From positions 1 to 25,691 of the IMG/VR virus record IMGVR_UViG_3300025410_000081: 25,691 nucleotides of DNA. One strand, written 5' to 3'. Of this stretch, positions 9,304-23,922 are shown one piece after another. The stretch comes from a virus (taxonomy: Duplodnaviria; Caudoviricetes). Both the position numbers and the translations under genes were made by a program. The notes under the pieces were generated by a model, which was not told the DNA's origin, made no database searches, and saw nothing but the letters and a program-made list of their open reading frames with translations. Each line of letters begins with the position of its first letter. Position 1 is the first letter of the stretch.

Positions 9304-9822
9304 CTACCACCCCGGACATTTCCAACGTTTTAACGAGGCTTTTGCCCGCTCGGCATCGCCCTTTGAATGCTCCACAACCCCTGACATCCGAGCGCAGAAA
9401 GAGTCCTTGCGTGGGCCTCCTTTTGGCTGGGGTGCTTTGAGGTGCGAACCAGTCTCACGATTGTACTTCTCGCGGCCCTTTTCGGTAAGTCCTGCGCCCT
9501 TAGAAACTGGTAATTTTTCACCGCGGCCAACAGCCAAAGATGGGCCACCCTTTTTCATCTTGGCAGTCTTTGCAGACTCCTTAAATGCTTCGGCGGTAGG
9601 CGCTCCTTTAGAGCCGGGTTTACGCATGTGTTCACCAGAACCGTGGGAAATACGTTCCTGTTTTGCATGGATGTTGGCATAGAGGCCGCCCGAGGCAAAC
9701 TTCTTTTTCTTGTCAGCCTCGACAAATTCTTTGCCAACCTTCTGGGGTACGCCACCAAATCCACCCTTTGTATGAGCGGCGGCCTCCATCAAGCGATGTT
9801 GTGCGGCGGATTTGCTTGGCAT
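9304..9822 (-). CDS. Basic three-module small protein (C-terminal module DUF6321-like)
   Basis: 172 aa, Lys-rich; C-terminal 'GLTEKGREKYNRETGSHLKAPQP..RKDSFCARM...SLKRWKC' recalled as DUF6321-like; modules separated by FASGG and MKKGG. Confidence 0.7.
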   Translation of the reverse strand: MPSKSAAQHRLMEAAAHTKGGFGGVPQKVGKEFVEADKKKKFASGGLYANIHAKQERISHGSGEHMRKPGSKGAPTAEAFKESAKTAKMKKGGPSLAVGRGEKLPVSKGAGLTEKGREKYNRETGSHLKAPQPKGGPRKDSFCARMSGVVEHSKGDAERAKASLKRWKCPGW

Positions 9823-9824
9823 GA

Positions 9825-10607
9825 TTAAGTTCCCGCACCGGTTACAAGATTGTCATTTTGAATCAAGATACCTGTAAGGTTCTGTGAGCAGATCAATGGG
9901 CCACCAATGCTTGCTTTGTACAAGTATTGGATGTCAGTCTTCTCTGTAATCTTACGAGGGATCTGTGTGTAGTCAATCTCAATTTGCTGTACAAAAGTCT
10001 GCTCTTGAACAATCTTTTGAGCGCCAGTCACGTTATCGTTAAATTGCACTTCAAAGTTGATCCAAGCACCGCTTGTAAATCCAATGTTTGCAGTCTTATA
10101 CGAACGCATGATATACAAACTGTAGCCAGCAGGAACGGTATAGATTGAGGCTTGGCTAACACCCAAACCGGGATTGATCTGAGCCAACAAGGTTGTGCTT
10201 TGCTTGAATGTAATCGTGCCCACGTTAGCGCCATTGGTCACGCCAACATTGTTGATACGCAAATACGATTTAACCGATGTAACAGCACTTGTGCCGTTCA
10301 GGGCAATCACTTCGCTAATTGGTGCAAAGTTAGCATCCAAACCTTGGATTTGAACGCTCAATGCGGTTGTATCAGAAGCCGAAGAACTGACGATCGTCAA
10401 TTGGGCTGCTGAAGATGGGAATGGATACAAACCGCCGCTTTGGGTCAAACCTTCCCAAAGAGGGCCAAATGCTGTGTTGCTAACTGCGGCTGAATAGCCA
10501 TAGAGCAAAAAAGGTGTGTGGCCTTGAATTTGTCCACGAGACACTTGCAAATTGAATGGCTCGTATGCGCCTGCGCGCGTAACTGAAGAAACGATACCGT
10601 TACTCAT
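9825..10607 (-). CDS. Virion structural protein (unknown function)
   Basis: 260 aa, beta-rich; 'FNLQVSRGQIQGH', 'VQIQGLDANF..ISEVIALNG', 'IYTVPAGY' resemble conserved phage structural proteins; AAGGA RBS. Confidence 0.6.
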   Translation of the reverse strand: MSNGIVSSVTRAGAYEPFNLQVSRGQIQGHTPFLLYGYSAAVSNTAFGPLWEGLTQSGGLYPFPSSAAQLTIVSSSASDTTALSVQIQGLDANFAPISEVIALNGTSAVTSVKSYLRINNVGVTNGANVGTITFKQSTTLLAQINPGLGVSQASIYTVPAGYSLYIMRSYKTANIGFTSGAWINFEVQFNDNVTGAQKIVQEQTFVQQIEIDYTQIPRKITEKTDIQYLYKASIGGPLICSQNLTGILIQNDNLVTGAGT

Positions 10608-10617
10608 AATCTATCCT

Positions 10618-10646
10618 TTAAAGAAGCGGGGGCCGTAGCCCCCACT
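10618..10646 (-). terminator. Rho-independent terminator
   Basis: Minus strand AGTGGGGGC-TACG-GCCCCCGCT then TCTTT; C(UACG)G tetraloop; directly after the stop at 10651. Confidence 0.75.
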
Positions 10647-10650
10647 CTAT

Positions 10651-12021
10651 TTAACAAGCCATTCCGCCTTTTTTCTTGTAAGACGGGGCTTTTGGAAAGT
10701 CCTGACCTTGATATACATCTTGGTCATACTGAAGGCGCGTATCAGCCTTAGCCTCCTTTACCGCCGGTGCATTCTCCTCAGCATAAATGCCTTGTAGGCG
10801 CTTATTGCCGGGGGCTACCTGACCACCTTTTTTATAAGTGCCAGACAGCATATTGATTGCAACGGGAGGAGCCTTCTTGCCGCTAACGCCTCGTGGGACT
10901 AACGCCACAGGTGAGCCTTGTTTATTAACATTGCCCCCCGTGGCGTAGGCTTTTTTTGCGGCATGCCCTCCATGCTTATAACCACCAGCGTTAGATTCCA
11001 TCACGCCGCCAGTAGCCTTGTGATGAACCTTACCGCCGCGCTTAAAGCCACCAGCATTACCTTCCTTCACGCCACCGGTAGGGCCGTGGACTTTGTCCTC
11101 GTACTCGTCGGTGTGCATCATGGTGTTTTCGTACTTCTTGGCAACGTTTTCAGAAACAGTGCCGCCAACAGCGTACTTGTGGCCGCCTTTAGCCATCTTA
11201 GCCAAGTGCATGTGATGCTCGTGCATCTTTGCGTGGTGAGCAGAGCCACCCTTAGCGTGATGTTGCTCGGCGTGGTGTTTAGCCATAGCCTTGTGGTGGG
11301 CATGCGAACCTTCTGGGTGACCAGAAACGCGATGCACTTTGCCACCGTGGGCGTGGTGAGCCTTACCGCCGTGCTTGTAGCCGCCTGCGTTGCCTTCTTT
11401 GACGCCGCCAGTACCGTGAGCAGTGTCACGCTTGGCAGTGTGCATTTCGGTTTCAACGTAAGGCTTCTCATCATGCTCAATGGTAGTCTTAGTCTCAAAA
11501 GCGTCCAAAGCCTCGCCGGTAGCGCCGCCCTTGGCAAACTTGTGGTGAGCCTTGCCGCCATGCTTCAGACCGTGGTGAGCCTTGCCAGCCTTCATGCCTT
11601 CGTGATGCTTCATTTCCTTCTCAAGATGAGAAAGGCGTTTTTCTTCACGACGCTCTTCAGCCTTGGACTCCATGCCGCCTTCAGCGTGATGATGGGCTTT
11701 GCCGCCCTTCTTCATAGCGCCGGGTTGAGTAGCCATCATCGCGGCGCGACGAGCGGCCATCGAAGGCTTAGCAGGACGAGCAACGGGCGTATTCAGGGCG
11801 GGACGACCAATGAGTGCTGGCGTGTTAGCCAAAGCGCCCATAACGCCACCGTCCATCATGTGCTTCATGTGCTTGTGACCATGCTCTTCCTTGGTCTTGC
11901 CACCCTTGGCTTTGTGAGCAACTTTGCCGCCCTTTTTCAGTTTCAGAATGACTGTAGGTTCATCAGTCATCATCTTAGGCATTTGGCTGAAGCCGCCTGC
12001 ACTTGACTTTTTAGTAGCCAT
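10651..12021 (-). CDS. His/Lys-rich low-complexity protein with about 18 xxxGG repeats (putative internal head protein/polyprotein)
   Basis: True start likely ATG 12021 (MATKKSS; AAGGAG RBS), 456 aa; the ORF-track start at 12099 overlaps the upstream gene; followed by a terminator. Confidence 0.75.
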   Translation of the reverse strand: MATKKSSAGGFSQMPKMMTDEPTVILKLKKGGKVAHKAKGGKTKEEHGHKHMKHMMDGGVMGALANTPALIGRPALNTPVARPAKPSMAARRAAMMATQPGAMKKGGKAHHHAEGGMESKAEERREEKRLSHLEKEMKHHEGMKAGKAHHGLKHGGKAHHKFAKGGATGEALDAFETKTTIEHDEKPYVETEMHTAKRDTAHGTGGVKEGNAGGYKHGGKAHHAHGGKVHRVSGHPEGSHAHHKAMAKHHAEQHHAKGGSAHHAKMHEHHMHLAKMAKGGHKYAVGGTVSENVAKKYENTMMHTDEYEDKVHGPTGGVKEGNAGGFKRGGKVHHKATGGVMESNAGGYKHGGHAAKKAYATGGNVNKQGSPVALVPRGVSGKKAPPVAINMLSGTYKKGGQVAPGNKRLQGIYAEENAPAVKEAKADTRLQYDQDVYQGQDFPKAPSYKKKGGMAC

Positions 12022-12032
12022 GAGTTTCTCCT

Positions 12033-13271
12033 TTAGGCTTGTGTAACGCCAAGCGCACCCTGACGGGTAGCATTGGGGCCGACCATGATGGCATTGCAAG
12101 CAATCGTAATCACCAAGCGGCTAACACCGTTTGTAGAGGACGAAGGCACGAAAGTACCGCGAACATCACCAGTGGTGCTGGTAGCAGTTGCTGTGTCGGC
12201 TTGCACGAAAGTACCGGTAGCGCGGGTAGAGGCGTTTGCCCAGCCCAAGCCAACCAAGTAACCAGCGTCAACCACACGAACGGGCAAACCGATGATGTCG
12301 GTAGTACCAACAGTCAATGCAGTGCCAGTTGCTGCCGAAACAGTGATCGAAGAGACTTGATAGAAAGCCTTCTTACCATTTACGGCTGTGCTAACAGCAG
12401 CGCTAGAGGTGATGGCTTCAGTCATAGCCTGACCGTAGTAGTCATAACCAGACACGGTAACGGTCACAGGAGCGACGCCCAGTGTGTAAGTCAAACCTGT
12501 AGGTGTACCAGCCGTAGTAACAACTGCTGCGCCGGCCGTGGTGGTCAGAGTAGCGGTTGTAGAAGTAACAGCGGTCAAAATATAGGTTGTGGGGTTGGTA
12601 TAGCCAGTAATCGAACCTGTACCGCCGTAAGTGCCGGAGATAGTCAAGCGTTGACCGCTGACCAAACCAGTTTGCGAGGTGAAGGAGATCTGACCACCAG
12701 TACCAGTGATTGCCACGCCAGCCAATGTGGTGGCAGCAGCGGTAGCAGTCGTCACGCTAACAGCGCGGGCGCAATCCAATTGGATCACGGTTGTGCCATC
12801 TGTGCGAGTGAACGATTTGGTCGATGTGCCAGCACTCAGGGTCAAAGCACCAGCAGCGGCTGGAGTTTGTGAGGCAGCGATATTGGCAGCAGACAAGGCT
12901 TGAGGAATCACGTCCCAAACGTAAACGCGACCCATAGGGCCAACGCCTAAGTCCATAGGAGAGGGATCACCAAGCAGCGCATTGCCAGAAGAAAACACTG
13001 TGATTGCACCTGTGGCGCTTGAAGAGGCGCTCAGTGTGTATGTGCCAACACCACCTGTACCGGTAACGAATGCGGTCACATAAGAACCAGCAGTCACACC
13101 AGTACCACCGATGTATTGGCCCAAGACCAATGGATCACCGGAAAGTTGTTGGGTAATGGTTAATGTAGTACCAGACACAGAACCGGCAAACACCGCTTCC
13201 GAGTTGGTAATGCCTGTACCCATGAACGTCTGGGCCGGGCCTAAGAAAAGGTCATCGCTAAATTGAGGCAT
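12033..13271 (-). CDS. Virion structural protein (capsid decoration / head fibre candidate)
   Basis: 412 aa, T/A/G-rich; immediately after the capsid gene; AAGGAG RBS; 'VTVSGYDYYGQAMTEAI...GKKAF', 'ATSTTGDVRGT'. Confidence 0.6.
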   Translation of the reverse strand: MPQFSDDLFLGPAQTFMGTGITNSEAVFAGSVSGTTLTITQQLSGDPLVLGQYIGGTGVTAGSYVTAFVTGTGGVGTYTLSASSSATGAITVFSSGNALLGDPSPMDLGVGPMGRVYVWDVIPQALSAANIAASQTPAAAGALTLSAGTSTKSFTRTDGTTVIQLDCARAVSVTTATAAATTLAGVAITGTGGQISFTSQTGLVSGQRLTISGTYGGTGSITGYTNPTTYILTAVTSTTATLTTTAGAAVVTTAGTPTGLTYTLGVAPVTVTVSGYDYYGQAMTEAITSSAAVSTAVNGKKAFYQVSSITVSAATGTALTVGTTDIIGLPVRVVDAGYLVGLGWANASTRATGTFVQADTATATSTTGDVRGTFVPSSSTNGVSRLVITIACNAIMVGPNATRQGALGVTQA

Positions 13272-13302
13272 CGTCTGCTCCTTGAAAAGTTTGACGAAGT
13301 TG

Positions 13303-13336
13303 AAGAAAAAAGGGGCTGGGTTTTATCCCAACCCCT
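13303..13336 (-). terminator. Rho-independent terminator after major capsid gene
   Basis: Minus strand AGGGGTTGGG-ATAAAA-CCCAGCCCCT followed by TTTTTCTT; begins a few nt after the capsid stop. Confidence 0.85.
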
Positions 13337-13343
13337 GTCGGCT

Positions 13344-14258
13344 TTAAGCGCCGGGAGTACCGTACGCAGAGCGCCAGTCAGTCCATCCGGGGATGTAACG
13401 TTCTGTTGCCTTGTAACGCATAGTGTCAGTCTCGAAGTCGCCTTCCATTGTCTTTTCCAGACGACGGCGCATCAGCAATTTCAGACCTTCAGGAGCGTCG
13501 GTTTGCACCCACCATGCTGTGGAACTGGTCAAACGTGACAGAACAGCAGCGCCTTCGTCCAGCAAGCCGATAGACTTGATGGGGTTGACGTCGTTGTTAG
13601 CAGTGCCAGTACGCAACACAGACTTCAGCAAAACTTCGGCTTGGAAGATGTTACCGGGAGCCACGATCAATTGACGTGGAACCAAGCGGATCTTCTTGCC
13701 GTTGTTGTCCACAGCCTGACGGATCTGGATCAACATTTGCTCAAGAGAGGTTTGCGACAACACAGCAGCAGTAGCCAACAAGTTGGATGCAGTGCCGTTG
13801 ACGATTGGGTGGCTAGTGGTGTTCAATTGAACGCCATCGCCACCAACATACGAAGAGTTGAACGCATTGTTCAAGATGTTCGCGCACAGAGTTTCTTTGG
13901 TTTCAATCAGAGATTGAGCCAAGTGACGTGCGTAAACTTGACCGATGCGGATGTGGTCGCCGTCTTCAACCAACACTTTGGTCAATGCGAAGGCCAAGCC
14001 ATAGACTTGGTACACATAGCGTTGGAGGAAGAGAACGCCGCCTTGCTGATAGGACACGGGGGAACCATCGGGCAATTGGGGCGCAGCGCCAAATCCATAA
14101 AGGACAGGCTCTTCGTGATAGTTACGGGGAATACCGTCTTGTTCGCGGAAAACGCGCGACCATTCATCGGTACGTTGATCATAGACTCCATCGAAGCATT
14201 CGTTGAGGATAGGTTCAACAATACTTCTAAAGTCCGTACTACGCATTGGTGCAGCCAT
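13344..14258 (-). CDS. Major capsid protein (HK97 fold, Mu gpT-like family)
   Basis: 304 aa; 'YGLAFALTKVLVEDG', 'LAQSLIETKE..ANILNNAF', 'PRQLIVAP', 'MEGDFETDTMRYKATERY..GWTDWR..YG..GA'; AAGGAG RBS; followed by terminator. Confidence 0.88.
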   Translation of the reverse strand: MAAPMRSTDFRSIVEPILNECFDGVYDQRTDEWSRVFREQDGIPRNYHEEPVLYGFGAAPQLPDGSPVSYQQGGVLFLQRYVYQVYGLAFALTKVLVEDGDHIRIGQVYARHLAQSLIETKETLCANILNNAFNSSYVGGDGVQLNTTSHPIVNGTASNLLATAAVLSQTSLEQMLIQIRQAVDNNGKKIRLVPRQLIVAPGNIFQAEVLLKSVLRTGTANNDVNPIKSIGLLDEGAAVLSRLTSSTAWWVQTDAPEGLKLLMRRRLEKTMEGDFETDTMRYKATERYIPGWTDWRSAYGTPGA

Positions 14259-14271
14259 GCTTTACTCCTTA

Positions 14272-14859
14272 TCAAACAGCAACCACAGAACCGAAGAACT
14301 GCGATTGTGAGTTAACTACACGGACGATTGTGTACGCGTCACCCCAAGCATTGCCGGGGATTGGAGCAATATCGACCACACGCATTTGTTGTTGGTTATT
14401 AGCACCAGCAGAAGAGCCAGCAGCCAAAGTGGCTTGTGACAATCCAGTGGTAGTAGAACCAGCAGCCAAATTGCCGGAAGTGAACGAGAACTCGCCACCA
14501 AGGGTGGTTTGAGCCATCGAACCGTCGGCTTGAATTTCATAAACGATGTTTTGATCGTTATAGAAATAGGCAACGCAGGAACCAGCAATATAGGAAGTAG
14601 AAGCGGGCCAATAGTTGGACACGCGACGACGACCAGTAGTGTCAGTCCACTCAACGCCATCAAATGCACCAGACCACGCTTGTGAAGTCGTAGTCACGGG
14701 CACGATAACGCCAGCGCCAGTTGAATAAAGAACAGGTTGGCCCTTCAGGATTGCTGAAGAGTAACCAGAGGTGATACCGTTGGCGAGAGCCTGTGCGCGA
14801 TCAAGACCAGAAGGATGATACGCAGGACGCAAACCAAACGGAGCAGAGGTTGCACTCAT
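14272..14859 (-). CDS. Capsid-associated (cement/decoration-like) protein
   Basis: 195 aa; 'APFGLRP', 'GAFDGVEWTD..G', 'DQNIVYEIQAD', 'GSTTTGLS' pattern of the gene usually found just upstream of this capsid type; AGGAG RBS. Confidence 0.65.
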   Translation of the reverse strand: MSATSAPFGLRPAYHPSGLDRAQALANGITSGYSSAILKGQPVLYSTGAGVIVPVTTTSQAWSGAFDGVEWTDTTGRRRVSNYWPASTSYIAGSCVAYFYNDQNIVYEIQADGSMAQTTLGGEFSFTSGNLAAGSTTTGLSQATLAAGSSAGANNQQQMRVVDIAPIPGNAWGDAYTIVRVVNSQSQFFGSVVAV

Positions 14860-14882
14860 TTTTAACTCCTATTTTTGTCCCT

Positions 14883-15422
14883 TTAGCCCTGAAACACAGG
14901 TGCTGGGACAGGTCTGTCAATGTTGCCTAAACCTTCGCCTTCGATCTTTCCGAGGTTCCTGCCGGAACTATCACTTGCCACGTTTTGCTCGGCTTGGCGT
15001 TTGATTTTCTCCGCCTCTTCCAATGGCATTTCGTGGTGAAAGTGCGACATAATTTCCTGATAGTAATCCATCGGGATCTTATACAGCAGCATTTCATTAC
15101 AAGCGATAAACCCGTCATGTTCGCCAGATTTGACTCGGTAGTTCTCAAAGCCCTTTAGTTCATCTGCTTTCACAGGAACGTAGCCGAGACGCATACGCTT
15201 ATCAATACTGTCGTAACTATTCGTAGTCGATAACCAGCAAAGATGCCAACCCGGTAATTCCGGAGTCTTAGGCAATGCGCTTTGTGTCCACTCGTCCTTC
15301 CACATCTTGCGACGCTCTTCGGCCGAAACGAACTTATCCTCCGGAGCCTCTCGAACTGAATCAAGACTCGCGCGATTTTCGCGTCCTCCAGCAGACAATG
15401 ATTTTTTTAAACGTGAATCCAT
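14883..15422 (-). CDS. Conserved head-module protein of unknown function
   Basis: 179 aa; 'PGWHLCWLSTTN..D.I.KRMRLGYVPVKADE...MLLYKIP'; GGAGG RBS; lies between scaffold and capsid genes. Confidence 0.65.
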   Translation of the reverse strand: MDSRLKKSLSAGGRENRASLDSVREAPEDKFVSAEERRKMWKDEWTQSALPKTPELPGWHLCWLSTTNSYDSIDKRMRLGYVPVKADELKGFENYRVKSGEHDGFIACNEMLLYKIPMDYYQEIMSHFHHEMPLEEAEKIKRQAEQNVASDSSGRNLGKIEGEGLGNIDRPVPAPVFQG

Positions 15423-15423
15423 T

Positions 15424-16389
15424 TCAATATCCTCCAGTAGTTCTGTTGCGTGCCTCGGTTGCGTAGCGCTTAATCATCTTCGCTCGCATCTCCGGGTTAT
15501 CCCACATGCCTGCATCTTTCATGGCCCTAACCTGATCGGGGTTGAGGGTAAAGGTATTCTTACCTCCACTACTCGCCGCACTTTCACGTCCGGATGAAGT
15601 TACAAAACTACGTCGTCTACTTTGTGGCTTCTCGTCTGTGTCCATAGTATAGCGGTGGGGCAGGATTCTTTGCAAGCGTTTATCTAACTCTTCCCAATAC
15701 TCTGGTGTTTTTGGGTCATAACCCTCATCAGCCAGAATTTGGTCTTCATTTAACGCCCTGCGTGAATCTGGATCTTTACCGTTGGGGTCGTACCAAGGGT
15801 TATCAGCCATCCACTCACTAGCGTGTCGTTGCAACTGAGGATCAGGGGCGGGTATACCCTGACGCTTTGGTGCTTGGTTCGCTTGATTGCGAATGTGCAT
15901 CAAAGATTCCACGTTTCTGCGGCTTTCAAACCACATTTCCTGTGCGGAAGCGTGGAGTTCACCGTTACCCGTGGCAATAGCCTCAGCCATTTTCTGTTTG
16001 GCGAAGTTAATCTTGGCCTCGCCGTCTTCAATTGCCTTGTTAATGCGGGCAACCTCAGAACCTTGAGACCGTTTCTCCAAAACAGACAGTCGTTCAAGCA
16101 AGTCTTGGTTTTGACGGGTCAAATGGTTGAGTTTGATGTCCTTCTCAATCTCAACTTGCTTGTGATATTCCTTGCGACGCTGGCGCTTCAAGCGTTTTTG
16201 CTCACGCAAAGCCTCAGCATCGGGGTCTACAGAGCCTGTAGCGGCTATTTCAGCACTACGGGCCTTCTCATCATCGTCTTCGTTGGCCTCAGCGACTGGT
16301 GCTTCAACGCCTTCCGGCAAATCCACTACAGCACTACCGTCCAACTCTTCCTTGATGGTCATCTCATCTGGACGTGGTGCGGTACTCAT
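15424..16389 (-). CDS. Putative capsid scaffolding protein
   Basis: 321 aa; acidic N-terminus, long coiled coil, 'WMADNPWY', 'GYDPKTPEYWEELDKRL', C-terminal 'LNPDQVRAMK..G'; ATGA overlap with upstream gene. Confidence 0.65.
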   Translation of the reverse strand: MSTAPRPDEMTIKEELDGSAVVDLPEGVEAPVAEANEDDDEKARSAEIAATGSVDPDAEALREQKRLKRQRRKEYHKQVEIEKDIKLNHLTRQNQDLLERLSVLEKRSQGSEVARINKAIEDGEAKINFAKQKMAEAIATGNGELHASAQEMWFESRRNVESLMHIRNQANQAPKRQGIPAPDPQLQRHASEWMADNPWYDPNGKDPDSRRALNEDQILADEGYDPKTPEYWEELDKRLQRILPHRYTMDTDEKPQSRRRSFVTSSGRESAASSGGKNTFTLNPDQVRAMKDAGMWDNPEMRAKMIKRYATEARNRTTGGY

Positions 16390-16823
16390 ACGAATGCCAC
16401 CACTTCTAACGGATTACCCGTCACTTTAGCGATCACTTCATGGTCGTTCAGAATAATGAACTCGGCTTTATCGTCGGATTTGTCAGCGCCGGGCACTGCA
16501 ACCTCCCACCTATCGCCTGTCCACTTGGGAACTCGCAGGAAATCACCCACTTCACACCATGAACCCTCTGGCCACGGCTCCATTGTGTCGCGTTTCTTGA
16601 ACGCCAATGGTCCAATAGCAATCACTTTACCGACAGGGTTTTGAGCCTTCTCAGTATCGCGTGTTTCTTGGGGCAAAATAATTCCCGATGAAGTGATTTT
16701 CTTCTTAGCCCTGCGTAATTGAACCAATACACGCGCACCTAGAGGAACTGCACCGGGGTCTACAACTGGAAAAGCCTCCAGTAAATCAGCCGAATCAACG
16801 GCTACCGTGCTAGTTGTCGTCAT
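16386..16823 (-). CDS. GroES/Cpn10-like co-chaperonin
   Basis: 'PLGARVLVQ...TSSGIILP...GKVIAIGP...VGD...G...EFIILNDHEVIAKV' follows the GroES signature (PL.DRVLV, T.GGI.LP, G.VVAVG, ILA.V). Confidence 0.85.
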   Translation of the reverse strand: MTTTSTVAVDSADLLEAFPVVDPGAVPLGARVLVQLRRAKKKITSSGIILPQETRDTEKAQNPVGKVIAIGPLAFKKRDTMEPWPEGSWCEVGDFLRVPKWTGDRWEVAVPGADKSDDKAEFIILNDHEVIAKVTGNPLEVVAFV

Positions 16824-16995
16824 CTTTTTCCTTTAAAAGATCATTGAGGATCTCTAAAGACTTGTCTAACCCTTGAAATTGTCCAACCAGACGCTGATAA
16901 GTCTCGAAATTGATGACGTGACCCGCCACCATTGACTCTCTTATCTTGTCTTGCTCCACTTTTACAGCGGAGATCAGGCTGGAAATAATGTTCAT
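16810..16995 (-). CDS. Small conserved head-module protein
   Basis: 61 aa helical, 'FETYQRLVGQFQGL'; coupled by ATGA to the upstream ORF and overlapping the GroES-like start. Confidence 0.65.
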   Translation of the reverse strand: MNIISSLISAVKVEQDKIRESMVAGHVINFETYQRLVGQFQGLDKSLEILNDLLKEKDDDN

Positions 16996-17168
16996 GCGTT
17001 TTTCTTGTCGATAGAGGACTTTTCAAAATCGCCGTGGTCGCTGTTGGCTTCGCTCATAGTCGCTTTAGATTTTTCTTTAATCTCTTGGCCGTCAATCCAA
17101 GCGCCCATCTTCAGGCGTTTTTGTTGACGAACTTGTTCACTCATTTGGTCTTTGTCTAACTGATCCAT
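16992..17168 (-). CDS. Small hypothetical protein (58 aa), absent from the ORF track
   Basis: Hand translation MDQLDKDQMSEQVRQQKRLKMGAWIDGQEIKEKSKATMSEANSDHGDFEKSSIDKKNA; GGGAG RBS; starts 2 nt after the portal stop; TGA overlaps the next ATG, filling the gap exactly. Confidence 0.7.
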   Translation of the reverse strand: MDQLDKDQMSEQVRQQKRLKMGAWIDGQEIKEKSKATMSEANSDHGDFEKSSIDKKNA

Positions 17169-17170
17169 GA

Positions 17171-19696
17171 TTAACTCCCTAAGTTATGTTGAGTTCGTGC
17201 TTCTAGAGCGTTTGCAGTTGCTTCTTGCTCTCGGCGCAACTTAGCCTCATCTACCGTCAACTGCGCCGTCTTCATGCGCTCTTGAGTGAGATTGTTTTCA
17301 GCGTTCATAGCGATGTCAGTCTGCTGCTTATCGAATGCGCGCTTCTGTTCGTTCTGCATCGACTGCATGTCGAGTTGAATGTCTGCCTTGTCTTTGGCCG
17401 CACGGCGTTGGGTTTCGGCCATAGACGCCTGCAAGACGGCTTGGGCTTCTGGATCGGCCGGCTGTGCTTGCTGGGCAGACTGAGCGATCTGTGTGGCCAT
17501 CTGACCGAGTTGCTGAATAGCGGGCAGAACCTGTGCAAAGACCTGCGGCGTGTCCATTTTGACGTGACCGGAGGCCAGAGCAAACGCCTTGTCCACCTGA
17601 GCGGCCAGTTTGTTGGTCTCGTATTTACCCAGATCGAGGTTTGAGCCACCAGTAACGTAGGTCTTCATCTGGTTGGTGTACCAGAGCAGCATGTGTTGCT
17701 TGATGTGTTCGAGAGCCGCAGGGATGAACTGAGGCGCGATGTTTGGATTGCTACCCAACGCAGGATCTAAGGCAAAGTCAATGTGAGTTTGAATGTGAGC
17801 CAATTGATCTTGACGTGGGTAAGCAAAAGCGGGCTTGCCGAGAGCCATAGCAGCATTCTCGTCGGCGGCATCCATCTCCAGCGGCTGGCTGGTCTTGGGC
17901 ATCAATTCGTTGACGTTCGGAACCTTCATCTGCTTGAGCATCCGAGACAGCACGGCATTCTGGTCAAATGACTGAGGGAACTGAGCCATCATGGCCATCA
18001 CAGCCTGCGTCTGAGCCATGCGCTGGGTCTCAGAGAAGATGTGCGGGTCAGAAACGGGAACAATGTCTGAGTTGCGATTGAAGTCAGCCTTAGCAATCGG
18101 CAGATCTCTCACCACGTCACCGCGGCGCTGGTCATCCAAGTACCAGCGGTTGATGCGGCCAAGCACCATCAGGACACGGCGCATGGAGTTGTGCAGGCGT
18201 GTGTGGATGCCAGAGTAAACGTGTGAGCCTTGCTCAATCAAAGCCTGAGCAGTACCCACAGGCATGTTATTCGAGGCGTCAGCGATCTTTTCTTCGGCGG
18301 TTGATACCACGCCCTTGGCAGCGTCGTTAAGCCAGCCAAGGAGCGAGAACAAAACTGGGCTGGGTGCGTTGAACGGCATGGGCATCGCAATCTTGCGGAT
18401 GTCGTCCACACCGGGCGCGCCTTCGATCTCAGTGACCTGTGTGATCTCAACCTGTTGGCTTTGGCCAGAGATCTTTGCGCCCTTCAGTTTGAGCATTGTC
18501 AACGAGTTGTTGACGTGAGCAGTATCAAGCAAAGCACGAAGAGAGCCAGTGAGAGCGGCTGAGAGACCACCGATAAGATGAGGGAGGCCAATAGCGTATG
18601 CACCACGCCAAGGAATAAACTTAAACTCAATAATCCAATCAAGTTTGCTAAAAGTCTCATCGCCTTCTTCCCAGTTGCGGTAGATACCCAGAACCTTGTT
18701 ATCCAGTTCATCGATCATCAGCACATAGGGAGCAGACTCGCCCTTGGTGCGCTTGTCGTCTTCGAGGTCGAGCCAAGTGTAGATGTGGTAGACGGTGCGG
18801 AGGCCATCAATGTTGTCGATGTACTTCTTGCCTTCGATCTTCTCGCTGGCCTTTTCAGAGTGGGTTTGGTCAGGCTCGGCAGTGGCACGAACCAAATCCA
18901 CGTCACGGTACAGACCGCGCTCTACTCGTTGATCGTATTCAAACTGAGTGATCTCCTGCTTCTCAGTCACGCGCTGGGCGGTGTAGAAGTTCACCGAGGC
19001 GAATGGCAGGATCACGTTATCGATAGGAACGAACTCAGCGCATGGGCGCTTCTTCTTCTCGTCGTACCAAAGTTTCAAGAACTGAGAGCCACCCAAAGGC
19101 AATTGGGTCAGCAGTTGCTCGGTCTCGTCCCGGAACTCTTCGATCTGCTCGGTCAGTTGCCAGTTAACCCAGTCAACCTTGCGATCGGCGATTTCTTCCT
19201 TGTCGTCAGTAACATCGCCAAGAATCTTCGACTTGACCGGGCCGTCCGGCGGAAAGAGTTCCTTAATCGCGCGTGCAGCGAAGTCAACGCAGGCCTCAGC
19301 CATGACTGGGTGAACAACCTTAGATGCTCCCATAAAGGTTGCACCTCCGGGGGCATCATCACCCATACCAGTACGGCGGATGCCTTCTTCATATTGCTTG
19401 TCACGCTTCTCACGGGCTTCTTTATCTTTGTCAATCAGGTCTAAATACTTGAGGGCCAAGCCTTCCATGTCCCAACTGTTGAGGGTCTCGGCAAGGTTGG
19501 AATAGAACTCTTCGTCGTCTGCTGGGCCTTTGAAATGATCATCTAACTGGACAATCGCCGAGCCGTCAGGCAGTTCTTGCACATCGGACAACTCGTCAGG
19601 CAGATCAACCGTTGCGCTACCGTCATCGTTCTCTTGGATAGGCATACCGTCAATGTGGCGGTCGTAGTCCTGTTCAATAGGCATTTGTGTCGCCAT
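17171..19696 (-). CDS. Portal protein (podoviral, P22-like with long C-terminal extension)
   Basis: 841 aa; 'GASKVVHPVMAEACVDF.ARA.KELFP..GPVK', 'PL.GSQFLK.WYD', 'FKFIPWRGAYAIGL.HLIGGL', 'PVGTAQALIEQG'; Gln/Ala-rich helical C-terminus; downstream of terminase. Confidence 0.88.
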   Translation of the reverse strand: MATQMPIEQDYDRHIDGMPIQENDDGSATVDLPDELSDVQELPDGSAIVQLDDHFKGPADDEEFYSNLAETLNSWDMEGLALKYLDLIDKDKEAREKRDKQYEEGIRRTGMGDDAPGGATFMGASKVVHPVMAEACVDFAARAIKELFPPDGPVKSKILGDVTDDKEEIADRKVDWVNWQLTEQIEEFRDETEQLLTQLPLGGSQFLKLWYDEKKKRPCAEFVPIDNVILPFASVNFYTAQRVTEKQEITQFEYDQRVERGLYRDVDLVRATAEPDQTHSEKASEKIEGKKYIDNIDGLRTVYHIYTWLDLEDDKRTKGESAPYVLMIDELDNKVLGIYRNWEEGDETFSKLDWIIEFKFIPWRGAYAIGLPHLIGGLSAALTGSLRALLDTAHVNNSLTMLKLKGAKISGQSQQVEITQVTEIEGAPGVDDIRKIAMPMPFNAPSPVLFSLLGWLNDAAKGVVSTAEEKIADASNNMPVGTAQALIEQGSHVYSGIHTRLHNSMRRVLMVLGRINRWYLDDQRRGDVVRDLPIAKADFNRNSDIVPVSDPHIFSETQRMAQTQAVMAMMAQFPQSFDQNAVLSRMLKQMKVPNVNELMPKTSQPLEMDAADENAAMALGKPAFAYPRQDQLAHIQTHIDFALDPALGSNPNIAPQFIPAALEHIKQHMLLWYTNQMKTYVTGGSNLDLGKYETNKLAAQVDKAFALASGHVKMDTPQVFAQVLPAIQQLGQMATQIAQSAQQAQPADPEAQAVLQASMAETQRRAAKDKADIQLDMQSMQNEQKRAFDKQQTDIAMNAENNLTQERMKTAQLTVDEAKLRREQEATANALEARTQHNLGS

Positions 19697-19698
19697 GT

Positions 19699-22491
19699 TT
19701 ATCTCGCTTTAAAGTGAATAAGGCCACCGCGCTTGTTCCCGTCTGACTCTTTAGCCAGCAGGTCAGGGGCTTCTACGCCCATAGCAGCAGCAATAGCGGC
19801 ATTTCGACGCCACGGGTCAAAGGCAGCAAACCTAGAGCGTACATCATCCGGGTTAAATGTTACGCGCTCACGGCCAACATCAAACCCAGAATAACCTTGC
19901 TCTTGGGCCTGTTTGGACATAAGGTCGTTCATCTCACGGGCTGAAAGATTAGGGTTTTGAGGTCTTTGCTCATCCCACATGGCATCGCGCTCAGGCGCTT
20001 TCATGTACTCGCCGCTGGTCACCAGAGGCATATTGCGGGTGTTGTTGGATGCTGGATCAGCATAGATCTCTGCGTACTTTGGACTCTTGCTGCTATAGAC
20101 ACCAGCGCCAAACTTTCCGGAGGCCGATGGCTTGATGGCGCTGAAGTCAACGTCTGCATTGGTGACATGATGCTGAGGAGTATTCAGGTCAAAGCCCATA
20201 GCGGCCGCCCGTTGCTCAGGCGTATTGAATGGAGCCAACCCTAAGCCACCCATGCTTACTGGCGCTGCTGCGCGTTGCTGGGCCAGTCTCATGGCTTCAG
20301 AGTTAGGGCCGGTCACGCTCTCGGCTGGATTCTTCAGATACTCAGGCATGAACCCGTTGTAGTCTGGGCGATTCATCTCAGGCGGCAGCAAGACGCTGGC
20401 CTGCGGTGCGTATTGGAATTCCTCGGTCAGTAAGCGTTTCTTTTCTGCTTTCAAGGCTTGCAGGTCAGGCGTGTCACCGAGGTGGGCAATCTGCTTGATG
20501 CGGTCATCGAGGCCACGCACAGCGCCAAGCACTTCTTGGTTGAGCGGGCTGTAGTTAACCACCGAGTTCTGGCCACGGGTCTCTGCTGACATGGCAGGAA
20601 CGGCCAGAGGGCTGTACATTTGTTGGTGAGCGCCCCAAGCGATCTCTTCACCCTTTGGGCCAAACTGATTGCCGTGGATAGCGTGGCCAAACACGTCATG
20701 CACCGTGCGGAACATCTCGTTTGTGTTCAAGCCGGTCTCAGGATCAACCTCATGCAAGAAGTCGTGGCGGTTGCCGCCTTGGAAGGTGTAGATGTGGCCA
20801 TTGCCGTGGATGTCGGCATTCATGGCCGCGCTGTTGGGATAGTTGCCTTCACCGTTGCGATGGAAGGAGATCTCGTAAGGCAGCGAGTTGAACTGGTCTT
20901 TGGTCTCTTTGGCCAACTGTTGATAACTGGCCTTCAGTAGATCGTCGTAGTTCTTAGCCCCTGTCTGCTCGATCAACTCAGGATGTTGCGCTTGGTAAGC
21001 CTTGAAGACGTTTTCTTTGTAGGCTGGGTTGTTCTCAGCGCCAGCCAAAAAAGCCTTGGCAACAGGCAATTGCTTCTGAGCGCTCGATGGCGGCATCTCA
21101 GGCGTTTGGTAATCCCGCCCGTGGATTGTTTGTGTCTTCTTATTGGCTAACTGCCAAGGAAGGTTTGTCTCTGGGTTGGTTACCGTGTCTTTGAGGGCGT
21201 CATGCGAGAATAGTGCCGCACTTCCATCGCCAGCCTCTCGTCTTGCTCGGGCGTCCGCTGCTGCGTTGGAACCCCATATTTCTTGTCGTGTTGCGCCATT
21301 AACAGACGCGCTCGGTGAAGTGGGTTTGACCCGGTAGAACGGGCCGTCTTGTCGTGTGACATAGTTGCTCTCCAAAGGCTTGATCTTATCAGCCGCGTTT
21401 AATGCTTTGTTAACTTGTGGTACATCTCCAACAAGTTTGATGCTTGCGCCGACAGGCAGTCCTTTGGTCAGTCCAAGCAACGACTCAGGGCCAACAGCCA
21501 TACCGGCAAGGTTGCGGGCGGCTCCAGATCCGAAGTTCTCCGAATGCTGGGCGGTCTTACCAGCGCCAAAGTCTTTAAGGCTTGGCAACCGGTTGGCTAT
21601 CGATTCGCTTGTTGGCAGAACTGTCTCTGGGTTCACCCGGTCAATATGCCCAAGCACTGATTGGCTGGGCGAAACGGCGTTGACAACCGATCGGCCAAAG
21701 GATTCAAGGTCGCCGGGAGCGCCAAGCACACCAGAGACAGCGCCCTTGCCTGCGCCGTAGAGCATAGGTAGCAAGCCTTGGGTCACCGCCTCAGATACGC
21801 TGGCATCCTTGCGAGAGTTGCCACCGGCAGCAAAACGCTCGACATGCTCCTTTAGGTTTGGGTTCAAGAGGCTCAGGTGGATACGGCCACCATCGGCTTT
21901 TGTGATGTCCGGAGTCGATGTATCGTATGTGCCTTGGTTGCCGATGTCGGATTTAATTTTATTTGGGTTATAAATACCAAGGTTCTTTATGCCGTTTTCA
22001 CTTGTGTAGTAGGAATCATGTCCTAGTTGTTTGATTAGCCGCTGGATGTCTGGGTGTTCGATTGAATCCCAGTTATTGAACATGCCGCCGCTATCATCGA
22101 CACCAGATATTGCGTCAAGGTCGTATTGAACGCTTTTGTTGCCGGGGAATTGTTTCTTTGCCTCCTCACGGATTGCTTTCATATGCTCTGGGTTGTCATA
22201 ATCAAATGGATTCTTAACTTGCACACGCACAGGCAGAACATTCGGGCCGTGCATACCCGTCGCGCCTTCAGAAAAATTGCTTGCAAACTCTGGGTCAGGT
22301 GATACAAATACACCCTTGCGCGGTGATATGAACTGGCTAATGTCTGCCTGAGTTCCGTGATACATCCTGCGTGTGTCTTTTGATTCAGCCAAAAACTTAG
22401 CAAGGTTTGCCTCACGCTCTGCGGCAGGGACAACCTTGCTTGCCGACTGTGCGGCTTTCAAGGCATTAGCAAGTTCGGTTAAAGCGCCCAT
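19699..22491 (-). CDS. Polyvalent-type multi-domain protein: ART-like domain, HDxxxH domain, second ART-like domain
   Basis: 930 aa; 'MYHGT...GVFVS...NVLPVRVQVKNP...GHDS...IYNPNKIKSDIGNQGTYD' and 'HHVT...GAGVYSS...YAEIYA...GYSG...ERVTFNPDDVRSRFAAFDP' resemble ART-PolyVal; centre 'NEMFRTVHDVFGH...GEE..W..H..MYS...ETRGQNS'. Confidence 0.7.
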   Translation of the reverse strand: MGALTELANALKAAQSASKVVPAAEREANLAKFLAESKDTRRMYHGTQADISQFISPRKGVFVSPDPEFASNFSEGATGMHGPNVLPVRVQVKNPFDYDNPEHMKAIREEAKKQFPGNKSVQYDLDAISGVDDSGGMFNNWDSIEHPDIQRLIKQLGHDSYYTSENGIKNLGIYNPNKIKSDIGNQGTYDTSTPDITKADGGRIHLSLLNPNLKEHVERFAAGGNSRKDASVSEAVTQGLLPMLYGAGKGAVSGVLGAPGDLESFGRSVVNAVSPSQSVLGHIDRVNPETVLPTSESIANRLPSLKDFGAGKTAQHSENFGSGAARNLAGMAVGPESLLGLTKGLPVGASIKLVGDVPQVNKALNAADKIKPLESNYVTRQDGPFYRVKPTSPSASVNGATRQEIWGSNAAADARARREAGDGSAALFSHDALKDTVTNPETNLPWQLANKKTQTIHGRDYQTPEMPPSSAQKQLPVAKAFLAGAENNPAYKENVFKAYQAQHPELIEQTGAKNYDDLLKASYQQLAKETKDQFNSLPYEISFHRNGEGNYPNSAAMNADIHGNGHIYTFQGGNRHDFLHEVDPETGLNTNEMFRTVHDVFGHAIHGNQFGPKGEEIAWGAHQQMYSPLAVPAMSAETRGQNSVVNYSPLNQEVLGAVRGLDDRIKQIAHLGDTPDLQALKAEKKRLLTEEFQYAPQASVLLPPEMNRPDYNGFMPEYLKNPAESVTGPNSEAMRLAQQRAAAPVSMGGLGLAPFNTPEQRAAAMGFDLNTPQHHVTNADVDFSAIKPSASGKFGAGVYSSKSPKYAEIYADPASNNTRNMPLVTSGEYMKAPERDAMWDEQRPQNPNLSAREMNDLMSKQAQEQGYSGFDVGRERVTFNPDDVRSRFAAFDPWRRNAAIAAAMGVEAPDLLAKESDGNKRGGLIHFKAR

Positions 22492-22494
22492 GTA

Positions 22495-23922
22495 TTACAC
22501 CGCATAAGGATTGACCCGAGTAGGTCGGGTATCGACTAGATCATCGTCATCATACCTTGGGGGCGGATCAATGTCTAGATAACCGATGTCTTTCAGAAAC
22601 CGAATCGCTTGCGTAGCGCTATCCACGTAGTCGTCATGCGTCGAGTCAGGGAACGAGCAGATCTGGCTCAAGAAGCCTTCGCACCAGTCCCGGACATAAC
22701 CCTTGCGGATAGACGACTCAGGCAGCCAGACGCGGCCGGTGGTGAAGATCGATGCAGTGATCTGAAGCCGGGTCATCTTGTCAGCCCTGCCCGGATTCCA
22801 GCCACGCACAGGCAGGTGCATATTGCGGAGTTCTTGCAGCAAGGACAGGCCGCTCGCCTTCTCCTCGATCAAGATCAGGTCGGGGCGCTTCATGCGCTTC
22901 TCGTCCCCGTAGGAGTTCTGCCACTCCTCGATGACCTTTGGGCGCAACTGGGGGAAGGTTAGATGCTCTGCCCAGCAATCAATCAGCAAGACGCTTATAG
23001 GCCCATCCTCAGGCTTGAACACACCCCAGCAGGTCATGGCAGTGGGATCGTTGTATTCTTTGTCTGTGTACGCGCAGTCGTAAGACTGGATGATGTACTC
23101 AAAGACAGGGAACGGCTTGTTGTTCGGCCAGAGTTTGAACATGTCACGGCTGACCACCTTGCCGTCTTCCATGTCAACGACCTCGCCCAGAACCTCCTGC
23201 AAGTACAGTTTGGAGCCTTTGTACTGCTCCAACTGCTTCTGGAAGGCTGGGGCAAGGTTGGCAGCGTTGTCGTAGGTTGAGGCGCGGCTGATGATCACGT
23301 CATCCCCTTCGCGGCCAACCAAGTCAAGGATCAGGTCTTTCGGTCTGGGCGTCGTGGTCACGATCACCCGCGGCTCACTATGCGGCTGGCTGTCAGGCTT
23401 GATACGCAGGCCAAGCATCATGTTATCCCACGCCTCGTTCGGCCCGAGATAGTTGAAGGCGGCTAACTCGTCACACCAGCAAAATGAGGAGTTGATACCC
23501 CGCAGACGGTCGTATGAGTCAGCAGACACTCCACGAATGCGTGACCCATTAGTCAGCCTGATCATGTGGTCTTGCTTGTTGTAGTCCTCGACCAGTTCCT
23601 CAGGGATGCAGGCCAAGAGTCCGGACGGCCCTTCAAAGCAGGTGTTCTTCAAGTCACCGCTCGTTGGGGCTAGAACAATGCTCATGGTCTTCGGGTGACA
23701 CCATGCCCACCACCAGAGGGTTTCGGCTGCCGAACGGGTCTTGCCGGCTCCACGGCCGGCGAGCATACAGAAAACCGTGTACTTTTGTTGTAGGTCTGGG
23801 GCGATCTGGTAAGGATGCGCCTCGGCTATCCAGTTGGCCCTTGCAATCAGGGCGATGCGGTTATGCTCCGGCAGAGTCTCGAACTCGTCCGCTGTCTCTT
23901 CGTCCAGCAGATCAGCCAGCAC
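22495..23922 (-). CDS. terL: Terminase large subunit
   Basis: 475 aa; Walker A 'AGRGAGKT', Walker B 'CWCDE', coupling motif 'VTTTP', nuclease acidic residues 'SYDCAY', 'DPTA', 'HDDYVDS'. Confidence 0.95.
   Translation of the reverse strand: MLADLLDEETADEFETLPEHNRIALIARANWIAEAHPYQIAPDLQQKYTVFCMLAGRGAGKTRSAAETLWWWAWCHPKTMSIVLAPTSGDLKNTCFEGPSGLLACIPEELVEDYNKQDHMIRLTNGSRIRGVSADSYDRLRGINSSFCWCDELAAFNYLGPNEAWDNMMLGLRIKPDSQPHSEPRVIVTTTPRPKDLILDLVGREGDDVIISRASTYDNAANLAPAFQKQLEQYKGSKLYLQEVLGEVVDMEDGKVVSRDMFKLWPNNKPFPVFEYIIQSYDCAYTDKEYNDPTAMTCWGVFKPEDGPISVLLIDCWAEHLTFPQLRPKVIEEWQNSYGDEKRMKRPDLILIEEKASGLSLLQELRNMHLPVRGWNPGRADKMTRLQITASIFTTGRVWLPESSIRKGYVRDWCEGFLSQICSFPDSTHDDYVDSATQAIRFLKDIGYLDIDPPPRYDDDDLVDTRPTRVNPYAV

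Follow-up and report, generated by a model that had tools for sequence, protein, structure and literature searches.

What does a five-residue motif ending in Gly-Gly do when it recurs in three different late proteins of one phage? The question is raised by the virus record IMGVR_UViG_3300025410_000081, of which the entire available contig was analysed (25,691 nucleotides, here called the window; the source genome is incomplete). A first-pass annotation of this DNA had noted the pattern [M/F/Y/L/H/K]-[A/K]-x-G-G in proteins of 456, 172 and 930 amino acids (aa), encoded by the minus-strand late region of a short-tailed phage (podophage), and had suggested that it serves for release by a protease, for packaging into the head, or for both. 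We find that the motif is a module-junction signal that acts at the level of the peptide and not as a ribosome site. By a modest balance of probability, the three late proteins are packaged and then cut at the motif, between its residues 1 and 2, so that their modules are set free.

The three motif-bearing genes are the following.

10651..12021, minus strand: 456-aa Lys/His/Gly-rich protein starting with MATKK (17 motifs plus MMDGG)
9304..9822, minus strand: 172-aa basic tri-module protein (PHROGs families and DUF6321)
19699..22491, minus strand: polyvalent cargo protein of 930 aa, encoded in the variable terL-portal slot (Pfam PF18760, homology blocks and the content of this slot in relatives)

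All copies that had been reported are present at the positions given, namely 17 matches and MMDGG in the 456-aa protein, FASGG (residue 42) and MKKGG (residue 89) in the 172-aa protein, and KADGG (198), FAAGG (220) and the variant NKRGG (919) in the 930-aa protein. For the 456-aa protein, shuffling gave a mean of 1.0 matches and 0 of 5000 shuffles reached 17; it has 24 Gly-Gly (GG) pairs, and 2.3 matches would be expected from composition. Taken alone, the counts in the other two proteins, with two strict matches each, are borderline (p about 0.03 in both cases). The pattern had originally been fitted to this window and was therefore tested on 80 related podophage loci (capsid 89-100% identical), counting unique GG contexts and omitting the one locus whose capsid gene is 100% identical. 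Across the 80 loci the motif occupies the same three slots. In the slot after terL 127 of 454 held-out contexts match (expected 20.9), among orthologues of the 456-aa protein 534 of 865 (expected 68.2), and in the slot before the adaptor gene 74 of 227 (expected 10.4), which amounts to a six- to eight-fold enrichment, and none is seen in core genes (6/323; expected 10.0) or fibres (5/543; expected 10.8). A scan of relatives, as the first-pass annotation had advised, thus shows a motif that is enriched and conserved, and composition as its cause is ruled out by the shuffling, the GG-pair expectation and the held-out counts.

Expressed per 1000 residues, motif density is 30.8 in 73 orthologues of the 456-aa protein, 9.9 in 74 proteins of the 172-aa type and 3.9 in 20 of the 930-aa type; it is 0.94 in 68 scaffolds, 0.07 in 57 portals, and zero in 80 capsids, 20 terminases, 66 GroES proteins and 78 copies of a 195-aa gene. 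The genes concerned lie in the window as follows.

22495..23922, minus strand: terminase large subunit (motif in 0/20 orthologues)
17171..19696, minus strand: portal (no motif in the window; motif in 3/57 orthologues)
13344..14258, minus strand: major capsid protein (motif in 0/80 orthologues)
15424..16389, minus strand: probable scaffold protein of 321 aa, from position and helical sequence
16234-16248, minus strand: degenerate scaffold site IAATG, where many orthologues have the full motif

The earlier statement that the motif does not recur in terminase, portal or capsid holds, with zero matches for these proteins in the window. Scaffold orthologues carry it near residues 35-62 (a match in 20/68; 19 unique contexts versus 3.5 expected). 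At the level of whole genomes, motif totals are 13-31 in seven near-complete genomes (3.9-5.7 expected) and 5 in phage RW (3.6 expected). The gene for the 456-aa protein belongs to the core of the clade (7/7 genomes) and is absent from Caulobacter phage RW; most of its orthologues have 8-17 motif copies. As to the residues themselves, the first position is Met in 248 of about 1007 contexts, with Tyr, Phe, Leu and Lys as common, and there is a weak preference for Val at +2 after GG.

As to where the motif stands, PHROGs divides the 172-aa protein into three families whose edges coincide with both motifs.

9700-9822, minus strand: module M1, phrog_16759-like (PHROGs)
9685..9699, minus strand: motif FASGG at the M1-M2 joint (sequence)
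9559-9684, minus strand: module M2, phrog_16028-like (PHROGs)
9544..9558, minus strand: motif MKKGG at the M2-M3 joint (sequence)
9307-9543, minus strand: module M3, DUF6321 (profile match)

Across relatives, five small basic modules occur in many shuffled orders. When four of them were scored in 73 distinct proteins of the 172-aa type, the motif stood directly before an internal module in 77 of 78 cases (GG in 78/78) and before a gene-start module in 1 of 19. DUF6321 occurs both ways: stand-alone genes lack the motif (10/10) and fused copies have it (40/41). Genes with a single module have one motif followed by a short tail. The genes just before the adaptor in loci L004, L008, L009, L042, L044, L049, L052 and L059 encode unrelated bodies, each with the motif and a short basic tail. 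Among genes in this position the tail ends in Trp in 17 of 19, and 57 of 70 complete proteins of the 172-aa type likewise end in Trp; the basic Trp-ending tail may be an address label and the motif a release site.

The 930-aa protein consists of an ART-PolyVal domain, motifs, a central module (about residues 249-734), an uncertain C-terminal module and a C-terminal variant of the motif.

21928..22368, minus strand: ART-PolyVal domain, residues 42-188 (Pfam PF18760)
21886..21900, minus strand: motif KADGG, residues 198-202, at the end of the ART module (sequence and homology blocks)
21820..21834, minus strand: motif FAAGG, residues 220-224, second copy of a tandem junction (sequence)
19723..19737, minus strand: variant NKRGG, residues 919-923, followed by a 7-residue basic tail (sequence)

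In 9 of 10 alignments covering it, the ART homology block stops at residues 202-207, on KADGG. A second ART-like domain in this protein, implied by the wording of the first-pass annotation, was not supported, as that stretch scored 2.3 bits against a hidden Markov model of the first domain and is not preceded by a canonical motif. Motifs and homology breakpoints go together in the slot after terL, where 114 of 128 internal motifs are no more than 25 aa away from a breakpoint (52.4 expected); the converse relation is weaker, with 130 of 400 breakpoints near a motif (59.9 expected). Proteins of this slot that do not match the 930-aa protein of the window likewise bear the motif, and among 36 slot proteins ART-PolyVal is found in 10, PcfJ in 7 and LPD23 in 2, with DUF7178, ParB-like and GP88 domains present too. 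The motif lies within the last 40 residues in 26 of 42 slot proteins, and C-terminal copies are found in 62 of 67 motif-array proteins. Placement of the motif at module edges, as proposed earlier, is therefore borne out by the internal versus gene-start counts and by the end of the ART block. The signal resides in the peptide, because the motif is encoded by freely varying codons and GGA seldom encodes its first Gly (34/1007).

If these proteins are indeed processed, the 930-aa protein would be packaged and cut at the motif, which would free an ADP-ribosyltransferase-like enzyme along with other cargo; the 456-aa and 172-aa proteins would give rise to short, mostly basic peptides within the particle. 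Cutting every site in the 456-aa protein would yield 19 pieces that are 7-53 aa long, of which 15 would be net basic. The protease would act at the joints of swappable modules and spare the capsid. Packaging itself is suggested by gene position and by the precedent of polyvalent proteins. Of the two uses proposed for the motif at the outset, processing is the most likely one, and the motif is probably not the sole packaging tag, given that the ten stand-alone DUF6321 genes do without it.

The position of the predicted cut was borrowed from the tail protein pb2 of phage T5. According to the available text of PMC11937500, the cut in pb2 falls after R1127, as judged from intact masses of 121,683 and 9,702; we computed masses of 121,680 and 9,702 for the two products. 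The one mapped analogue is thus cut before A-x-G-G, because the T5 fragment starts with AEGG, and R-A-x-G-G is invariant in the 4/4 T5-family proteins aligned. A cut before [A/K]xGG would also suit the stand-alone genes, as their initiator Met is often in register with residue 1 of the motif (MSKKN-VSLAVG versus MKEGG-VSLAVG). In lambda gpH, a cut at FATGG (733) would give a fragment of 12.4-13.0 kDa. The TM4 and Douge papers report no mapped cut.

Which protein could read the motif? The search for a protease advised in the first-pass annotation was carried out in MW202545, a complete relative, and in the seven genomes, and it yielded no peptidase of clan CE/CA. Neither such a peptidase nor a prohead protease was found by Pfam among the 64 distinct proteins of MW202545, a search that a divergent one could escape; its peptidase-type matches are an M15 endolysin and an S74 fibre chaperone. 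No protease of either kind was recognisable among the 25 families common to at least five of the seven genomes, judged from the annotations of MW202545 and of the window and from a check for HExxH. In keeping with the earlier remark on the head module, Pfam and PHROGs show no prohead protease in the window, where the protease-capsid PHROG matches of the capsid cover the capsid part. Among the 36 slot proteins, many regions of which have no Pfam match, the only peptidase-fold match by Pfam is a RadC-like JAB domain in one slot protein (L073:588-4616). A weak DA1-like match in MW202545 was rejected as a protease, as it lacks HExxH and occurs in 0 of 17 contigs. The first-pass annotation had also named the 179-aa protein of the head module as a possible partner of the motif.

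14883..15422, minus strand: conserved head-module protein of 179 aa, conserved in relatives
15384-15398, minus strand: LSAGG near the N-terminus of the 179-aa protein (LSAGG/LNAGG in 44/52)

This candidate was dropped, since it shows no protease features and its His and Cys are not kept in six distant homologues, some of them from phages that lack the motif. Its model (predicted local distance difference test, pLDDT, 64.9) had no Foldseek match at E 0.001 and no clear match in a second structural comparison (best Z 4.2), and it matched only unnamed clusters in Atlas.

The leading candidate for a reader, as yet unproven and with no protease fold matched, is a small module with the pattern AxGG...G-x-GTG-x-SD-x-I-x-A-x-L-x-x-G[E/D][FY]V, hereafter GE module. 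In MW202545 the first gene of the ejection cluster has the motif, and its end encodes two copies of a small module that contains G-x-GTG-x-SD and G[D/E]YV. Of 80 loci found by the GE-carrier gene, 78 have the motif in that gene; the next gene has it in 20 of 78. The GE module is present in 17/17 large contigs of the clade, in a part of the genome that the window does not reach. It has homology to an element near the C-termini of many tape measure proteins, among them those of lambda, JBD30 and Douge; PHROG matches reach E 9e-8, the tblastn matches are mostly annotated as tape measure, and the profile matches 8ZDO and 8RK3, neither of which was included in it. Two acidic positions are conserved in an alignment of 12 hand-picked rows, two of them supplied by RW-type relatives, and the lambda relatives found were identical copies only; at E 0.001 the module has at least 4768 representatives, and those listed are all closely related. 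In a viral fold library it matched unnamed phage proteins only, and in Atlas the nearest named cluster is crAss cargo protein 1 at 0.84, which is a lead only.

A second phage group places this module elsewhere. The protein gp79 of HTVC103P (L338:6136-7431) is rich in the motif, ends in a GE module and is encoded between portal and scaffold. In 80 loci of HTVC103P-type marine phages picked with the GE gene (L360-L439), a scaffold or capsid gene lies downstream in 78, a portal gene upstream in 55 and both in 53, counts that are limited by the early end of many of these loci; 59 of 65 complete GE genes have the motif in a slightly wider pattern. The interval between portal and scaffold is the usual place of the prohead protease, so that the position of the HTVC103P-type GE gene in this slot is suggestive and no more. 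The GE module occurs together with motif-bearing late genes also in HTVC023P (a weak match) and psg01, and in the regions fetched from CRP-901, MW202785, QDWS535 and MW202796 there are neither the module nor motif-bearing late genes. CRP-901 has similar cargo-type genes, with no module and no enrichment of the motif.

If cutting occurs, the GE module has somewhat less than an even chance of being the catalyst, the alternatives being a host protease or an unrecognised phage protease. A doubtful extension of this idea is that the GE module is an undescribed self-cleaving peptidase that cuts its own upstream motif in tape measures and was repurposed by podophages as a maturation protease acting in trans. 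It would account for the cleavage of lambda gpH, to which no enzyme has been assigned, and perhaps for that of T5 pb2. In podophages the peptidase, located at the prohead-protease position in HTVC103P-type phages and carried by an ejection protein in this clade, would cut motif-punctuated cargo polyproteins into injected enzymes and DNA-condensing peptides.

Other genes of the ejection region deserve mention. The second ejection-type gene (L081:18832-20070 and its orthologues in L085-L164) often ends in a Cys-rich stretch, a motif-like AxGG and a conserved tail resembling GCxST...GxLP, and Cys-rich tracts occur in the GE-bearing gene too. Within the tail-ejection module of MW202545 and 12 related loci there is a ketoacyl-synthase-like gene with two small genes (L081:21995-23815), possibly for acylation of an ejection protein.

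The strongest rival to processing, though clearly the less likely of the two, is that the motif is a docking tag, arrays of which bind a receptor (the GE module, the scaffold or the portal) and recruit cargo into the prohead by avidity, the proteins remaining whole. It would explain the tandem copies at joints, the large number of copies in most 456-aa orthologues, the C-terminal copies of slot and array proteins, the single-module genes with one motif before a short tail, and the lack of a match between the GE module and a solved protease fold. However, one copy per chain would then do, not one per joint, and stand-alone DUF6321 genes would not be expected to lack what nearly all fused copies have; moreover, T5 pb2 is cut at such a site. 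It is improbable that the motif persists with nothing specific to read it, either as a flexible linker or as a leftover of gene fusions and recombination. Gly-Gly is flexible, modules are shuffled at the motif and its first residue is often Met, which would be expected if start codons had been fused in; yet Tyr, Phe, Leu and Lys are equally frequent in this position, synonymous sites under the motif vary, and the motif has been retained by genes without homology to one another, by scaffold orthologues, by ejection genes and by a separate family of marine phages.

Adenain cuts (M/L/I)xGG|x, and pS273R and SENP/Ulp proteases of clan CE cut after GG. A clan CE/CA cysteine protease acting in this way, as the first-pass annotation had envisaged, is hardly to be expected here. 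The invariant GG, the large residue upstream and the weak Val at +2 would suit such an enzyme, but the large residue lies one position further from GG than in the adenain pattern, no such peptidase was found by Pfam among the 64 MW202545 proteins or recognised among the shared families, and the T5 analogue is cut before AxGG. Least credible of all, with a negligible probability, is that the motif arises from an RNA signal, such as an internal ribosome-binding site in which AAA GGA GG is translated as K-G-G. GGAG sites precede 243 of 291 starts checked, and the enrichment of Val at +2 could reflect GTG; against this, only 44 of the 1007 contexts contain a Shine-Dalgarno-like word, the codon GGA is under-represented at the first Gly and Val at +2 is GTG in 68 of 377. 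An internal Shine-Dalgarno sequence or start codon is ruled out by these codon counts.

Several points weigh against cutting at the motif. In these phages cutting is a prediction. Because the 80 loci are closely related, their counts do not represent independent events. Separating the modules would require neither tandem copies 7-10 residues apart nor C-terminal copies that precede short tails. The model of the GE module (pLDDT 69.6) matches no solved fold in the PDB (best Z 3.1), RW and JY27 have the module without motif-bearing cargo, and the JBD30 paper describes the module as a 'hook' and speculates that the cut falls after it. With respect to T5, the likeness comprises five residues and their position, with an R that is outside the class of first residues of the motif, and hhalign detects no homology between the downstream element and the GEFV type (0.35%). 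The site itself is disputed, as the accessible part of PMC11937520 gives V1148 from older data and points out that R1127 is also tryptic. A second RALGG of pb2 (about residues 138-142) is evidently uncut, which would fit a cut that needs an adjacent module and thereby favour self-cleavage over a simple five-letter rule. For lambda gpH the available part of PMC12617516 reports a fragment of about 14 kDa, with site and enzyme not known.

As to the genomic setting, the late genes are arranged in the order terS, terL, 930-aa protein, portal, GroES, probable scaffold, two small genes, capsid, fibre-like gene, 456-aa protein, 260-aa protein, 172-aa protein, SU10-type adaptor and fibres. Measured by capsid identity, the annotated relatives closest to this freshwater phage are MW202545 (89%) and the Caulobacter phages RW, GB2A, RLK and KcrB (77%), followed by CRP-901, HTVC023P and others with 27-44%. 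GroES is encoded in the head module (window 16386-16823) and retained in every related phage fetched. Between portal and GroES (16824-17170) there are two short open reading frames (58 and 61 aa) that are conserved in relatives, the first with the motif in a few loci, and positions 13272-13343 form an intergenic gap after the capsid gene. MW202545 further encodes a Tad2-like anti-Thoeris protein (L081:15299-15763; Pfam E 2e-22).

How does this system compare with known ones? Like the substrates of adenain, pS273R and SENP, the proteins described here are polyprotein-like and have Gly-Gly within a recurrent motif; unlike them, they have the large residue three positions before the first Gly, with A or K between. 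They resemble the polyvalent proteins of PMC5512222, as far as its available text goes, in being large mosaics with ART-PolyVal, LPD23, PcfJ, ParB-like and GP88 domains amid virion genes (terL-portal). For polyvalent proteins, release of domains by peptidases was proposed there, with an embedded zincin MPTase and others, which are frequent though not universal, whereas in the 36 slot proteins Pfam detected no embedded peptidase apart from the JAB domain mentioned; no junction motif is described in the available text, and the word 'glycine' is absent from its main text. As in the processing by prohead proteases of T4, phiKZ and SPN3US, for which the accessible part of PMC5694885 describes core proteins cut to small fragments and removable targeting peptides, one short motif is repeated on unrelated proteins that are probably internal. 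The motifs of those phages end in Glu (AXE, SXE), their capsid propeptides are cleaved and the gene for the protease has been identified (PMC5694885, same part), whereas in this phage the capsid is free of the motif and no prohead protease is recognisable. T5 pb2 is cut at R|AEGG, and the tape measures of lambda, JBD30 and Douge carry AxGG...GEFV as does the ejection protein of this clade; in T5 and lambda, however, there is one cut in a siphophage tail protein by an enzyme that is not known (PMC12617516, available part), compared with many sites in head-region genes of podophages here.

No description of the motif system was found in the literature searched, which did not cover most subscription papers. 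New here are the comparison of fused with stand-alone genes, the codon test, the contrast with CRP-901, the T5 site that stays uncut and the location of the GE gene in the protease slot of HTVC103P-type phages. Should the motif prove to be a cut site, abundant freshwater and marine podophages would build their injected cargo as mix-and-match polyproteins with five-residue punctuation, and there would be a rule for splitting thousands of unannotated proteins into real units. The processing of head cargo would then be tied to the cleavage of tape measures, for which the lambda enzyme is not known (PMC12617516, in the part available), and a small portable tag for cleavage or packaging would be a useful tool. 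In summary, the system would amount to motif-directed processing like that of large myoviruses, applied to polyvalent cargo, and would differ from theirs in having no known protease, in its motif and in sparing the capsid.

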